This document shows, in pieces, positions 14,032 through 60,118 of a stretch of 64,000 nucleotides of DNA. The notes under the pieces are model-generated. The model saw only the letters and a list, made by a program, of their open reading frames with translations. It had not been told where the DNA came from and did not search any database. The stretch lies in the NCBI GenBank assembly GCA_964387845.1, contig CAYLXA010000001.1, positions 320,001-384,000 of the forward strand, written 5' to 3'. The position numbers and the translations under genes are program-made. Source of the DNA: an uncultured bacterium (lineage in GTDB: Bacteria; Omnitrophota; Omnitrophia; Omnitrophales; Abzuiibacteriaceae). Each line of letters starts with the position of its first letter. Position 1 is the first letter of the stretch.

Positions 14032-14100
14032 GTGTTAAGTTGTAAGTGATAAGTTTTAAGTTATTCAATTACTTACCACTTATAACTTATCACTTACCAC
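14032..14100. repeat. Family-4 heptad hairpin (tandem NNTAAGT heptamers on one arm, ACTTANN on the other).
   Basis: gtgttaagttgtaagtgataagttttaagt – tattcaatt – acttaccacttataacttatcacttaccac. It sits between the gamma-CA stop and the sucC start. Confidence 0.75.
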
Positions 14101-14104
14101 TATG

Positions 14105-14617
14105 TTACAAACTTACAAAACGTCCCCGCGCGTGTTCCGCTGCAAGCTGAGCGTACCGCTTGGCCCATTCGATCTGGCCTTTGACTTCTTTCTTGGTCAA
14201 TTTCCGCTTAAATTTAGCCGGCATTCCAAGATATAAACTCTCAGGTTTTACCTTCATCCCTTCCGTCACAAGCGCTCCGGCGCCCACGAGTGCGCCTTCG
14301 CCAATCACCGCGTCATTTAAAATAATCGCGCCCATTCCGATCAAGGCGCCCGATTTTACCGTACACGCATGCAAAATCACATTGTGCCCAACCACGCAAT
14401 AATCACCCACGTAACAGCCGCGCTCGCGCTCTAAATGTACGAGCGAGAGATCCTGAATGTTTGTGTATTTACCGATCACAATTTCATTAATGTCGCCGCG
14501 CAGCACCACGCCGGGCCAGATATTGGCATAATCCTTGAGCGTCACGCGCCCGATCACTTGCGCAGACGGATGAACCCAGACATTCTTCCCGAGTTTCGGC
14601 TTATAAGTAAAAGTCGT
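14105..14617 (-). CDS. Gamma-class carbonic anhydrase family / hexapeptide-repeat protein.
   Basis: Left-handed beta-helix hexapeptide repeats (VIGRVTL…, IWPGVVLRGDINEIVIGKYTNIQDLSLVH). The start was placed at MTTFTY because the upstream 11 codons fall inside the family-3 repeat. Confidence 0.65.
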   Translation of the reverse strand, partial: TTFTYKPKLGKNVWVHPSAQVIGRVTLKDYANIWPGVVLRGDINEIVIGKYTNIQDLSLVHLERERGCYVGDYCVVGHNVILHACTVKSGALIGMGAIILNDAVIGEGALVGAGALVTEGMKVKPESLYLGMPAKFKRKLTKKEVKGQIEWAKRYAQLAAEHARGRFVSL

Positions 14618-14624
14618 CATTGCG

Positions 14625-14702
14625 AGACATAGTGATTGGTGTCGAAGCAATCTACGTTCTGAGATTGCTTCGGCGAAGTTTTCAAAGCGCCTCGCAATGA
14701 CG
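14625..14702. repeat. Family-3 palindromic element, short form (gtcattgcgag…cgaagcaatctacgttctgagattgcttcg…ctcgcaatgac).
   Basis: It is a near-perfect palindrome read directly. Its left half is identical to 7100–7140. Confidence 0.75.
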
Positions 14703-14711
14703 GTATTTGCA

Positions 14712-15461
14712 TTATTTCTTCAAAAAATCCAATAGATTGACCGTGATCTGGCGGTTGACTTCGGCAATCGAAGTGACGAGCGGAATCTGCTTTGGGCAGG
14801 CCTTCACACAATTCTGCGCATTCCCACAATCTTCAATGCCGCCTTTTTCCATCAAAGCTTCTAAACGTTCTTTTTTCAGCACGGCGCCGGTCGGATGCGC
14901 ATTGAACAGCCTGACTTGGCTGATCACGGCAGCACCGACAAAATCCGAGCGGTCGTTAATCTGCGGACAAACTTCCATGCAGCAGCCGCAGGCAATACAG
15001 CGCGACAGTTCATAATTTTCGAGCGCTTGCTCGGGCTGAATCCGGGGCCCCGGCCCAAGCGCATAAGTTCCGTCAATCGGAACCCAGGTTTTTGTGCGTT
15101 TCAAACTTTTAAAAATGCGGCTTCGGTCGACCGCCAAATCACGCACGACCGGGAATTTGGTCATCGGTTCAATTGTGATTTCATCGCCCAAATGATCGAC
15201 GAGCGTTGAGCACGCCTGCCTGACTTTTCCGTTAATCACCATCGTGCACGTGCCGCACACTTCTTCAAGGCAGCTGGCTTCCCAGGTAATGACCGATGTT
15301 GCGCGGCCGTCAAAAGTTTTTGGATTTTTACGCAGATCCTGGAGGCACGTGATGATATTCATGTACGGGCGGTACTTGATTTTATACTCTTCCCAATACG
15401 GTTTCGTATTCGGCCCGTCCTGGCGCTTGATTTTGATTTTAATCGAATCAAATTTTGCCAT
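14712..15461 (-). CDS. sdhB: Succinate dehydrogenase / fumarate reductase iron–sulfur subunit.
   Basis: 2Fe-2S and 4Fe-4S cysteine clusters (CIACGCCMEVCP, CGNAQNCVKACPKQIP). Confidence 0.85.
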   Translation of the reverse strand: MAKFDSIKIKIKRQDGPNTKPYWEEYKIKYRPYMNIITCLQDLRKNPKTFDGRATSVITWEASCLEEVCGTCTMVINGKVRQACSTLVDHLGDEITIEPMTKFPVVRDLAVDRSRIFKSLKRTKTWVPIDGTYALGPGPRIQPEQALENYELSRCIACGCCMEVCPQINDRSDFVGAAVISQVRLFNAHPTGAVLKKERLEALMEKGGIEDCGNAQNCVKACPKQIPLVTSIAEVNRQITVNLLDFLKK

Positions 15462-58228: not shown

Positions 58229-58231
58229 GAT

Positions 58232-58504
58232 TTACTTCCTCATATCGCTGACATGGGTGCGCAAAATTTCAAGCTTTGATTCACCTTCTCCGACTTTTAT
58301 GACAACATAGTCATCTTGAAGCGTATGGATAGTTCCGATGATACCGCCGGCCGTGACGACTTTGTCGCCCTTTTTCAGGCCCTTGATCATGTTCTGGTGC
58401 TCTTTTTGCTTCTTTTGCTGCGGGCGTATTAATAGGAAGTAAAAAATAACAAAAATAAAAATCATCGGCGCGAAGGCCATGATCGGATTTGCCTGCTGCT
58501 CCAT
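58232..58504 (-). CDS. yajC: Preprotein translocase subunit YajC.
   Basis: 90 aa, single TM, then …KGDKVVTAGGIIGTI…. Confidence 0.8.
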   Translation of the reverse strand: MEQQANPIMAFAPMIFIFVIFYFLLIRPQQKKQKEHQNMIKGLKKGDKVVTAGGIIGTIHTLQDDYVVIKVGEGESKLEILRTHVSDMRK

Positions 58505-58516
58505 TTTAAAGTCCTT

Positions 58517-59647
58517 TCACCTTAATTCGTCATCATACTGTGATTCAAATTGCTTTTTAAAACTTGAAAAAGTACCGCCCCGGACCGCTTCCCGGATTTC
58601 GCGCATGAGCGCCAAAAAGAAATAAACGTTGTGATATGAAAGAAGCCGGTCTCCCAAAATTTCTCTGCAGTTTACCAGATGTCGGATATAACTGCGAGAG
58701 AAGTTTTTGCAGGCATAACAGCCGCAAGTTTCATCGAGCGGCTTCTGATCCTCGGCATAATTTCCGTTCCGGACCACGATTTTGCCGCGCCGTGTGAAAG
58801 CCGTTCCGGTTCTGCCGTATCGGGTGGGATTGACACAATCAAACATATCAAAACCGGCTTCCACGGCCATCAACAAATCCAGCGGTGTTCCGACACCCAT
58901 TAAATATCGGGCGTGATCTTTGGGCATTGCGGGCCCCATTTCGCGCACGATTTTGATAATTTCATCTTTCGACTCACCGACGCTCACGCCGCCCAGCGCA
59001 TAGCCGTCGAATCCGATTTCAACCGTACGTTCAAGGGATTCTTTCCGAAGATCCATGAATTTCCCGCCTTGAATAATGCCAAAGAGCTGCTGATTTTGAA
59101 GTTTGTGCGCCTTTTTGGATCGCTTCGCCCATTCAATAGTCAGGTTGAGTGATTTTTTTACATATTCAAAACCGGCGTCTGCATGCGGACACTCATCAAA
59201 CACCATCGCAATATCGGAACCAATCACTTCCTGAATTTCGATTACCAACTCCGGTGTAAACAAAATCTCGCGGCCGTCAAAGTGAGAATTGAACACAGCG
59301 CCTTCTTCCGTGAGTTTGCGCAATTTTGCGAGACTAAAAACTTGAAACCCTCCGGAATCGGTCAAAATCGGATGCGGCCACGTCATGAATTTGTGAAGCC
59401 CGCCGGCTTTTTTTAATATCTCAAGGCCGGGCCGGATATATAAATGGTAGGCGTTGCCCAAAATGATTTGAGCTCCGGCCTCCTCGAGCTCGCGCGGGCT
59501 CATGGTTTTCACGGTTCCCTGTGTGCCCACCGGCATAAAGGCAGGCGTTTCGAAAACGCCGCGGGATGTATGCACGCAGCCCGTCCGGGCTTTGGAGTTT
59601 GGATCGGATGTTAATAGCGAAAATGATTTTGACGGCGCAGTTTTCAT
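58517..59647 (-). CDS. tgt: Queuine tRNA-ribosyltransferase.
   Basis: [11 protein letters not shown], zinc site CxCxxC…H ([16 protein letters not shown]). Confidence 0.9.
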
Positions 59648-60036
59648 GCAGGCTTCGGCGGGATTGCGATCACGTGAAACGGAAAGCGCCTGAAGAGTTC
59701 GCCGTTTAAGAGCACTTCAACCGAATATTTTCCGGCCGTTGCGAATTGGACATTGTTAAACCGCGAAATAATAATATGGCTTGCATCATAATCTTTGAGC
59801 GTAAATTTTACTTCCGGCGAGGTTACAACTTGCTGGTTGTCCGGATCCACGATTCTGGATTGCTGCCGGAATTCGCCTGCGCCGACACACCACTGATTCG
59901 CGATGTGGAGCACAACATGCATGACCGGAAATTTCGGCGAAGCAATTGTGTTAAACGCGCCGATGAAGATAAACTTTCCGTTCCCTTCCTGGCGCACGTC
60001 ATCGCAAAGTATGGAATATTGAAGTTCTGGTTTCAT
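59644..60036 (-). CDS. Hypothetical protein (130 aa) inserted between queA and tgt.
   Basis: The ORF overlaps the tgt start by 4 nt. No recognisable family. Confidence 0.4.
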
Positions 60037-60042
60037 TTTTTC

Positions 60043-60118
60043 AGTTGTAAGTCGTAAGTGGCAAGTGTTAAGTTGATTGATTAACTTAGCACTTACAACT
60101 TACCACTTATCACTCGTT
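60043..60118. repeat. Family-4 heptad hairpin.
   Basis: ttgtaagtcgtaagtggcaagtgttaagt … acttagcacttacaacttaccacttatcactcgtta. Its terminal motif is identical to the copy at 48205–48290. Confidence 0.75.

Follow-up and report, generated by a model that had tools for sequence, protein, structure and literature searches.

What kind of element separates one gene from the next at five places in a 64-kb stretch of DNA from an uncultured Omnitrophota bacterium, each time as a hairpin assembled from 7-nt repeats? The stretch, hereafter the window, comprises positions 320,001 to 384,000 of contig CAYLXA010000001.1 (assembly GCA_964387845.1). Its ~50 open reading frames (ORFs) were scanned against Pfam, and the genes flanking the hairpins were named by Pfam and NCBIfam. 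The hairpins, designated HP1 to HP5, had been picked out in an earlier inspection of the letters alone (the sequence-only reading). We conclude that they are a new unit and a new host within an already known, mechanistically unsolved kind of heptamer-repeat hairpin. Our preferred reading, to which we give about an even chance, combines three elements: genome-specific palindromes of a heptanucleotide simple sequence repeat (SSR), a role in RNA like that of repetitive extragenic palindromic (REP) elements, and a geometry suited to translational coupling.

Five heptamer hairpins next to stop codons

The five hairpins are located as follows (coordinates within the window):
HP1, 14022..14104, minus strand: gap between a hexapeptide (gamma-carbonic anhydrase (gamma-CA)-like) gene and sucC; plus-strand arms 14029-14061 and 14071-14103
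HP2, 17816..17911, minus strand: gap between mdh and sdhC; arms 17819-17851 and 17872-17911
HP3, 48205..48294, unstranded: between convergent suhB (+) and a TIGR04073-family gene (-); arms 48206-48238 and 48253-48285
HP4, 55882..55961, minus strand: gap between secDF and recJ; arms 55886-55918 and 55929-55961
HP5, 60037..60120, minus strand: gap between queA and a DUF6941 gene; arms 60041-60073 and 60084-60116

Each locus consists of three to five tandem TAAGTNN units (equivalent to NGTAAGT), an AT-rich loop of 9-27 nt and three to five NNACTTA units. The sequence-only reading had described such complementary arms and loops at these places, and all five copies read as described. Tandem Repeats Finder (TRF) returned a period of 7 (and 14) for all ten arms. 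When up to two mismatches were allowed, TAAGTNNTAAGTNNTAAGT gave 31 matches, every one within the five loci, compared with 0.03 expected from shuffles; coincidental low-complexity sequence, which the earlier inspection had named as its own undoing, is not what was found. The 16-mer CTTACCACTTATCACT matches exactly at six places and with one mismatch at a seventh, and these matches cover all five copies. The tail ccacttatcactcgtta, already noticed as a terminal motif common to two copies, is present in HP3 and HP5, and a 21-nt tail, CTTACCACTTATCACTCGTTA, is likewise common to these two. In an alignment of the five copies, mean column identity was 72%. The shared 16-mer, the 21-nt tail and this level of identity argue that HP1 to HP5 are a related family and not chance low-complexity sequence.

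Predicted RNA folds were strong for every copy: -24.1 kcal/mol (z -5.1) for HP1, -37.3 kcal/mol (z -8.8) for HP2, -35.0 kcal/mol (z -8.1) for HP4 and -30.7 kcal/mol (z -5.9) for HP5. For HP3 the two strands gave -34.3 and -41.4 kcal/mol (z -6.4 and -7.3). The stems are made of 6-bp blocks, with 1x1 mismatches between blocks at the variable position of the heptamer. HP3 adopts a different register on each of its two strands, and in the order of their units the two arms hardly mirror each other. Both results bear out the expectation that such periodic arms could pair in several registers.

The distance from each copy to a stop codon is at most ~6 nt, as had been proposed in looser terms. The HP1 stem begins 2 nt past the stop of the hexapeptide (gamma-CA-like) gene. 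The mdh stop codon TAA (17902-17904) doubles as the TAA of the outermost, first TAAGT unit in HP2. HP3 is abutted by both stops, those of suhB and of the TIGR04073-family gene (assigned at 68.4 bits). The secDF stop codon TAG (55958-55960) falls within the outer degenerate unit of HP4, and the HP5 stem begins 6 nt past the TGA of queA. The description of these elements as gene-end hairpins was therefore right about the stop codons but missed that the copies fill stop-to-start gaps inside operons. HP1, HP2, HP4 and HP5 are each followed, after 4-16 nt, by the ATG of the next gene in the same direction; the recJ ATG, for example, lies 4 nt beyond the HP4 stem. Three of these four copies have the tail CTGAAAAA(A)ATG, HP1 having CTGGATAAAAAATG instead, and the last unit is ACTGAAA in three of the four. 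The TAAGT arm comes first in all five window copies. Note that, by a loose test, a Shine-Dalgarno (SD)-like motif precedes only ~15 of 47 window genes; because such motifs are scarce throughout the window, their lack after the hairpins is not distinctive.

The period of seven is itself a property of the window. A scan for tandem arrays found 16 at period 7 and 0-1 at each of periods 4-6 and 8-12, with shuffles giving 0.25 or fewer. All 16 period-7 arrays are hairpin arms, and they belong to five TAAGT, two AAATTCA/TGAATTT and two CAAGCTN copies. Of the 33 intergenic gaps that measure 35 nt or more, eight are dominated by period 7, and these are all 76-100 nt long. The single hairpin family that had been proposed is thus real, but its nature as a heptanucleotide SSR, of the type termed short tandemly repeated repetitive (STRR) or long SSR (LSSR) sequence, was overlooked, as was the presence of several unit families. 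Copies of the other two families are:
4888..4976, minus strand: AAATTCA/TGAATTT hairpin with core TTTGA, between a tRNA_bind gene and a DUF1015 gene; z -4.6, period-7 autocorrelation 0.60
54108..54207, unstranded: second AAATTCA/TGAATTT copy, between convergent rpmB (+) and recJ (-); -29.5 kcal/mol, z -5.7
53708..53783, unstranded: CAAGCTN/NAGCTTG palindrome in the divergent pepA/rpmB gap; z -2.7, period-7 autocorrelation 0.68
4135..4221, minus strand: CAAGCTN copy within the DUF1015 coding sequence (CDS; 3571..4887), in frame, adding ~27 residues, QAASRKLQAAGSKLQTSSLKPEAGSLQ

By alignment, an orthologue 90% identical to the DUF1015 protein (P0002) lacks the insert, and one with 79% identity (P0003) has a variant of it. 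The same region was also compared as DNA in contigs L118 and L121. A general rule by which the 5' arm would carry stop codons in all three frames was considered and rejected, for the TAAGTNN, GTGAAGC and GTTAAAA units do so and the AAATTCA family does not.

Orthologous junctions and other genomes

Related Omnitrophota contigs, among them L118, L119, L139-L143, L145, L147 and L148, were fetched by exact-protein look-ups; L143 proteins are ~80% identical to those of the window. In L118, L119, L139 and L140 the hexapeptide gene and sucC either stand 1 nt apart or overlap by 4 nt. The mdh-sdhC junction measures 1-2 nt in L139, L140 and L141, with an Mdh C-terminus of equal length, and L119, L139 and L140 are free of any period-7 array across 14-21 kb. 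Because relatives have gaps of 1-2 nt or overlaps at both junctions, HP1 and HP2 are recent lineage-specific insertions placed right after a stop codon. No target-site duplication was found at HP1 or HP2; comparison of filled sites with the empty sites of relatives reads simply TAA, insert, ATG.

At the remaining junctions some relatives have no hairpin and others have a different one. The recJ/rpmB junction, which holds a hairpin in the window, is an overlap or a gap of 1-4 nt in L143, L145, L147 and L148. In L143 the HP5 site, between queA and the DUF6941 gene, is occupied by a heptamer hairpin of ACAGANN/TCTGTNN units, and the HP4 site, between secDF and recJ, by one of the GTGAAGC type. 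The latter junction holds a weak GAAGTGT/GAAGCGC hairpin in L145 and a 3-nt gap in L147. Between the tRNA_bind and DUF1015 genes there is a hairpin of AAAAGTT units in L118 and a degenerate one in L119, and the mdh-sdhC junction of L142 is occupied by a CCAGNNN/NNNCTGG heptamer hairpin. The rpmB/pepA junction of L143 has the CAAGCTN family, as in the window. At the site of HP3, between the TIGR04073-family gene and suhB, L143 has a textbook bidirectional terminator (AATAAAAAGCGCAGGA...TCCTGCGCTTTTTATT; L143 12689-12755). These comparisons show that hairpins are gained at tight junctions and that unit families turn over where a hairpin is kept. A check against orthologous intergenic regions, which the sequence-only reading had recommended, thus yielded insertions at HP1 and HP2, turnover of families and a terminator at the HP3 site of L143. 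It also supplies clean pairs of filled and empty sites, with insertions directly after stops in formerly overlapping operon junctions, and a documented case of a heptamer hairpin occupying the place of a relative's canonical bidirectional terminator.

Palindromes of other construction were also seen in such gaps. In L148, a more distant Omnitrophota contig, the secDF-recJ gap (3862-4000) contains an unlike composite palindrome of ~130 nt, GTCATTCCCG...CGGGGATGAC, so that palindromic elements of unrelated kinds have settled in this junction independently. The aceB/aceA gap of the window (50752-50817) holds a CCCTC/GGGAG palindrome with a period of 6, not 7, and the same junction is tight in relatives (11 nt in L143). 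Since CCCTCTCCCTC..GGGAGAGGG is also met between genes on other Omnitrophota contigs (L142 ~4150-4172; L148 1120-1210), CCCTC/GGGAG represents a second family of junction-colonising hairpins.

Species-representative genomes were scanned for exact matches to a pattern of three TAAGT units, a gap of 5-35 nt and three ACTTA units. TAAGT/ACTTA palindromes were found at no fewer than 116 loci in more than 10 phyla, where the number expected by chance is far below one. The matches listed come mainly from Bacteroidota (Chitinophagaceae, Saprospiraceae and others) and Acidobacteriota (Pyrinomonadaceae). They also include Omnitrophota, Gammaproteobacteria (Thiotrichaceae among them), Planctomycetota, Verrucomicrobiota, Chlamydiota, Chloroflexota, cyanobacteria, Deferribacter and others. 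In 816 kb around the matches listed there are 340 period-7 arrays, compared with 2-39 at other periods, and many of these have units other than TAAGT.

Placement in these genomes resembles that in the window. Among the matches listed, 100 copies could be classified, of which 68 lie between co-directional, 29 between convergent and 3 between divergent genes. Baseline gap contexts in the same loci are 67, 20 and 13%, respectively (p = 0.003). The median gap from the upstream stop to the hairpin is ~6 nt, and that from the hairpin to the next start is 16-23 nt. A total of 97 of the 100 copies lie downstream of at least one gene end, which agrees with the REP-like placement suggested from the window alone. 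Orthologous hairpins in different species differ by whole units and in their loops (L060 versus L102, with 3 versus 4 units; L100/L106; L018/L109).

The TAAGT arm came first in five of six neighbouring copies that had not been ascertained through the pattern. The opposite order, with the ACTTA arm first, was found at 17 metagenome-collection loci, several of which are boundaries of two tandem elements. A bias of arm polarity is no more than suggestive, the two orders having been counted in different collections. Viral contigs (IMG/VR) gave 0 and 0 matches for the two arm orders, by which a link to phages was ruled out.

L013 and L049 are two copies in one metagenome-assembled genome (MAG), in opposite orientation. 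In L095 (3047-4813), TAAGT and ACTTA arms stand 60-150 nt apart around unique sequence. The enclosed sequences are mutually unrelated and contain no tRNA, and so give no evidence for a cargo-carrying miniature inverted-repeat transposable element (MITE). In L136, L130 and L133 the arms flank a conserved core of ~50 nt that is tandemly repeated.

Known element classes and a possible role

Bacterial heptanucleotide repeats have been on record since 1990, and cyanobacterial STRR heptamers were reportedly described by Mazel et al. in that year. We know of no established reason for the 7-nt unit, nor of any established function of such repeats in bacteria. REP elements, for their part, serve as mRNA 3'-end stabilisers, as at the malE-malF junction of E. 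coli.

The window hairpins have the attributes of the heptamer-SSR or STRR type, namely a 7-nt unit, adjacent inverted arrays, dispersed intergenic copies of several families, and length variation by whole units. As in cyanobacterial STRR sequences, the tandem 7-bp units form hairpin-capable inverted arrays that are dispersed over intercistronic and gene-end positions. The unit here is TAAGTNN and not CCCCAGT, TTGGTCA or CAACAGT, and it is found in Bacteroidota, Acidobacteriota, Gammaproteobacteria and others as well. In the strict sense an STRR belongs to a (heterocystous) cyanobacterial host; because the host here is an omnitrophote, the elements are filed under the broader heptamer-SSR kind. 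For the window elements, moreover, gain, loss and family turnover are documented against close relatives. For the STRR hairpins, built from 7-bp repeats, that separate hupS from hupL, a part in transcript stability or translational coupling has been suggested (PMC2670836). According to the summaries of Mrazek 2007 in PMC4679880 and PMC4692102, long SSRs of prokaryotes are most often heptanucleotides, and polymerase slippage has been suggested as their source. A literature search for the literal repeat strings found no paper. Hairpin-forming heptamer arrays are hereby extended from cyanobacteria and Xanthomonas to Omnitrophota, and the TAAGTNN unit to Bacteroidota, Acidobacteriota, Gammaproteobacteria, Planctomycetota, Chloroflexota and others.

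Two further heptamer systems invite comparison. The GGGAATC heptamers of Xanthomonas form ~70 convergent inverted pairs (Rehm et al. 2015, PMC4692102) and, like the hairpins here, are mostly intergenic SSRs in stem-loop pairs that vary in length at conserved positions. Their units are G-rich and form G-quadruplexes, whereas those of the window are AT-rich with no G-tract, and the tight stop-to-start placement of the window elements is not reported for them. TAACTGA direct repeats adjoin start codons in marine Beggiatoaceae, cyanobacteria and some Bacteroidetes (MacGregor 2015, PMC4679880). They have a similar phylogenetic scatter (Thiotrichaceae, cyanobacteria, Bacteroidota), their arrays also end near starts, and their unit is one substitution away (ACTGATA versus ACTTATA); the terminal unit ACTGAAA of the window copies belongs to the same likeness. 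The TAACTGA network is defined by direct forward repeats that end by a start codon, with one inverted case in 170 sets. Here the ACTTANN and TAAGTNN arrays are always inverted pairs, and every copy abuts an upstream stop.

REP elements and their doublets, REPINs (Bertels & Rainey 2011, PMC3116915), share with the window hairpins the form of extragenic palindromic doublets at gene ends and in spacers, the lack of a U-tract and the occurrence of genome-specific families. Their architecture is a fixed palindrome of 20-40 nt with a conserved, GTAG-type head; the window copies are variable 7-nt arrays with free NN positions, no fixed consensus and unmirrored arms. Neither a RAYT (REP-associated tyrosine) or IS200-type (Y1) transposase nor a transposase of any other kind was found among the ~50 window ORFs in the Pfam scan. 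Nor do HP1 and HP2 show the target-site duplication that, together with terminal inverted repeats, marks a MITE. The suggestion that these hairpins are targets of a REP-associated transposase thus found no backing: there is no RAYT among the window ORFs, no REP architecture and no target-site duplication.

Classical terminators differ in other ways. HP1 to HP5 are, like Rho-independent terminators, stable stem-loops right past a stop, and HP3 stands at the canonical terminator site of L143. Their stems, however, are AT-rich, 25-35 bp long and periodically mismatched where a GC-rich stem would be expected, and most lie within operons. Neither strand has a U-tract after any of the copies; the tails on the sense strand are A-rich or mixed. 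Two canonical intrinsic terminators, each a GC-rich stem with a U-tract, were identified in the same window:
39532-39603, minus strand
63588-63624, minus strand

Since canonical terminators occur in the same window and the heptamer hairpins have no U-tract, the latter are a separate class, as the sequence-only reading had surmised. Terminator and promoter scans of the window gave counts not above those of shuffles and called none of the hairpins. With Rfam 15, only tRNA reached the gathering threshold in the whole window, and nothing specific appeared at E <= 1. HP3 gave sub-threshold matches to miRNA-precursor models, that is, it scores as a generic long hairpin.

Our preferred reading starts from what the comparisons show: the elements are acquired at operon junctions and at the 3' ends of genes, after which each arm gains or loses 7-nt units. 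Some copying between loci would also be needed, because 16-21-mers are shared between loci. Given their position between co-transcribed or convergent genes, the hairpins should be transcribed. The mRNA would then form an imperfect stem-loop of 25-35 bp whose base lies at the upstream stop or no more than ~6 nt from it and which ends a few nt before the next start. By analogy, the hairpins would most plausibly work like REP elements: a stem-loop with no U-tract could serve as an exonuclease barrier, a pause site, a partial or weak terminator and possibly a substrate of RNase III. The stem would also loop out the inserted DNA, so that stop and start of formerly overlapping cistrons stay adjacent. 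A terminating ribosome would melt the base of the stem and expose the initiation region, and coupling would be preserved. Adjacency kept in this way would explain both the tolerated insertion and the persistence of translational coupling. Selfish or mutational processes probably gave rise to the elements, with any function secondary.

Several results weigh against this combination, in which the RNA-level role is throughout one that we infer. The two strands, sense and antisense, do not differ in how well they fold (28 versus 42 cases, p = 0.25) or in how many G-U pairs they form (100 versus 121), so that there is no sign of strand-specific selection on RNA. Pairing is 77-87% at core positions and ~62% at NN. 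The NN units of the two arms correspond in mirror order at 133 units, compared with 124 +/- 3.4 for shuffled order. Such NN pairing and unmirrored order are not expected from selection for a maximally stable stem. Hairpin-bearing window junctions are mostly tight in at least one relative, and the hairpins are therefore dispensable. As for the manner of spread, simple copy-paste of whole elements is disfavoured by loops that are unrelated from copy to copy, and purely local slippage in situ by the shared 16-21-mers. Perfect inverted duplication and selection for maximal stem were both rejected as accounts of the arms, the mirror excess over shuffled order being marginal. From the weak mirroring it follows that the arms act as near-independent arrays drawn from one pool of units, a behaviour that would fit separate gain and loss of units in each arm together with pairing in several registers.

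A rival account sees in the hairpins a purely selfish or mutational by-product with no cellular role, arising and spreading by slippage, template switching or other copying and persisting where it is harmless, after stops and outside promoters. We consider this a serious contender, if clearly short of an even chance. Pairing with no strand asymmetry between unmirrored arms fits it. So do the gain and loss of copies between close relatives, the occupation of one junction by unlike families in different lineages and the in-frame copy tolerated inside the DUF1015 gene; depletion in divergent, promoter-only gaps is expected from purifying selection alone. A mere by-product would not, however, be expected to persist as a heptamer hairpin at ~80% amino-acid identity despite full sequence turnover, as it does between the tRNA_bind and DUF1015 genes, at rpmB/pepA, between secDF and recJ, and between queA and the DUF6941 gene. 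The position of HP3 at the site of a real terminator in L143 and the 1.5-fold enrichment of convergent gaps among the matches listed also speak against it. The position of HP3 could instead suggest that the hairpins are themselves Rho-independent terminators or attenuators, being stable structures directly past a stop. We regard this as the least probable account of all, since there is no U-tract on either strand, the sense tail is A-rich, the terminator scan missed every copy, and canonical terminators with GC-rich stem and U-tract coexist in the window. Complete termination would, furthermore, do harm at four of the five copies, as these are internal to conserved operons (mdh-sdhCAB, hexapeptide-sucCD, yajC-secDF-recJ).

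Two other accounts assign the arrays to a protein. They might be binding sites for a reader of 7-nt units in single-stranded RNA or DNA, of a cold-shock-domain or S1-like type, that controls translation of the downstream gene. Conservation of the 5-nt core with two positions free, a fixed arm order with the TAAGT arm 5', and an ACTTANN arm that ends 4-16 nt before ATG with ACTGAAA as the last unit in three of four copies all lend themselves to this idea. Protein-binding arrays controlling translation have been proposed for the TAACTGA repeats of Beggiatoaceae (PMC4679880), whose rephased unit ACTGATA is one substitution from ACTTATA, and start-adjacent TTTTGAA repeats of Nostoc affect expression (bioRxiv 10.1101/2022.06.06.494920). 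The idea is nonetheless unlikely: several co-evolving readers would be required, given several unrelated families per genome and junction units that differ among relatives. In addition, 29% of the copies among the matches listed lie between convergent genes with no start codon nearby, and no candidate protein was identified. Slightly less probable still is a REPIN-like origin, in which a Y1 transposase of the RAYT/IS200 type, with its gene elsewhere in the genome, would mobilise the hairpins as non-autonomous elements. In keeping with the REPIN concept (PMC3116915), the hairpins are palindromic doublets that stand outside coding sequence where genes end, several related copies per genome share 16-21-mers, and insertion polymorphism is clear. 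No Y1 transposase is encoded in the window, however, and the arms are tandem arrays of variable length with no fixed REP or conserved 5' tetranucleotide. Unrelated loops, non-mirror arms, the lack of target duplication at HP1 or HP2 and the spread of the TAAGTNN unit over more than 10 phyla among the matches listed are likewise not what such mobility predicts.

As an outside chance, the heptamer palindromes may be footprints of an unrecognised, widespread process at the level of DNA that lays arrays of 7-nt units with fixed polarity beside stop codons, after which cells use them as terminator substitutes and coupling devices. The TAAGT arm would be 5' and the ACTTA arm 3' on both strands. Conceivable agents are a repeat-adding polymerase or reverse transcriptase that acts on both 3' ends of a break or, alternatively, a hairpin-specific transposition or gene-conversion system. 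Such a process would explain the unrelated loops, the near-independent arms, the lack of target-site duplication and the recurrence in more than 10 phyla. A strong stop-hairpin-start placement rule and a possible polarity rule emerge from these data. Together with the insertions and the terminator site, placement makes the competing ideas of selfish DNA, REP-like stabiliser, coupling device and protein-binding array testable.

Other observations on the window

The hairpins also affected assembly. An independent Logan contig from the same sample, L001, has the same sequence and ends exactly at HP2 (10920-11017). A second Logan contig of this sample, L121 (1-37), begins midway in the hairpin at 4888-4976. 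These contig ends at palindromes indicate that short-read assemblers break there. In practice, palindromes of this kind fragment assemblies of short reads, and predicted ORFs can come out too long or too short because of them.

Homologues of the window proteins carry the names Omnitrophica or Omnitrophota, and apart from the hairpins the window is devoted to core metabolism (tricarboxylic acid (TCA) cycle, cytochrome c maturation, Sec, queuosine). The divergent gap between icd and suhB (47230-47388, plus strand) contains four consecutive strong hairpins, with a minimum free energy (MFE) of -74 kcal/mol over 150 nt (z -7.3). These have no Rfam match and may be a structured leader or a small RNA. 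At 7378-8739, ORF6N-domain and HEPN_AbiU2-like genes lie between the genes for arginase and inositol-1-phosphate synthase; both are absent from this position in L119, and the pair may be a small defence or mobile insertion. Finally, a cluster of multihaem c-type cytochromes (NrfB-like, NapC/NirT-like and c554-like; 28899-34076) lies downstream of the ResB/CcsA cytochrome c maturation genes and is adjoined by a 753-aa ORF with no family match.

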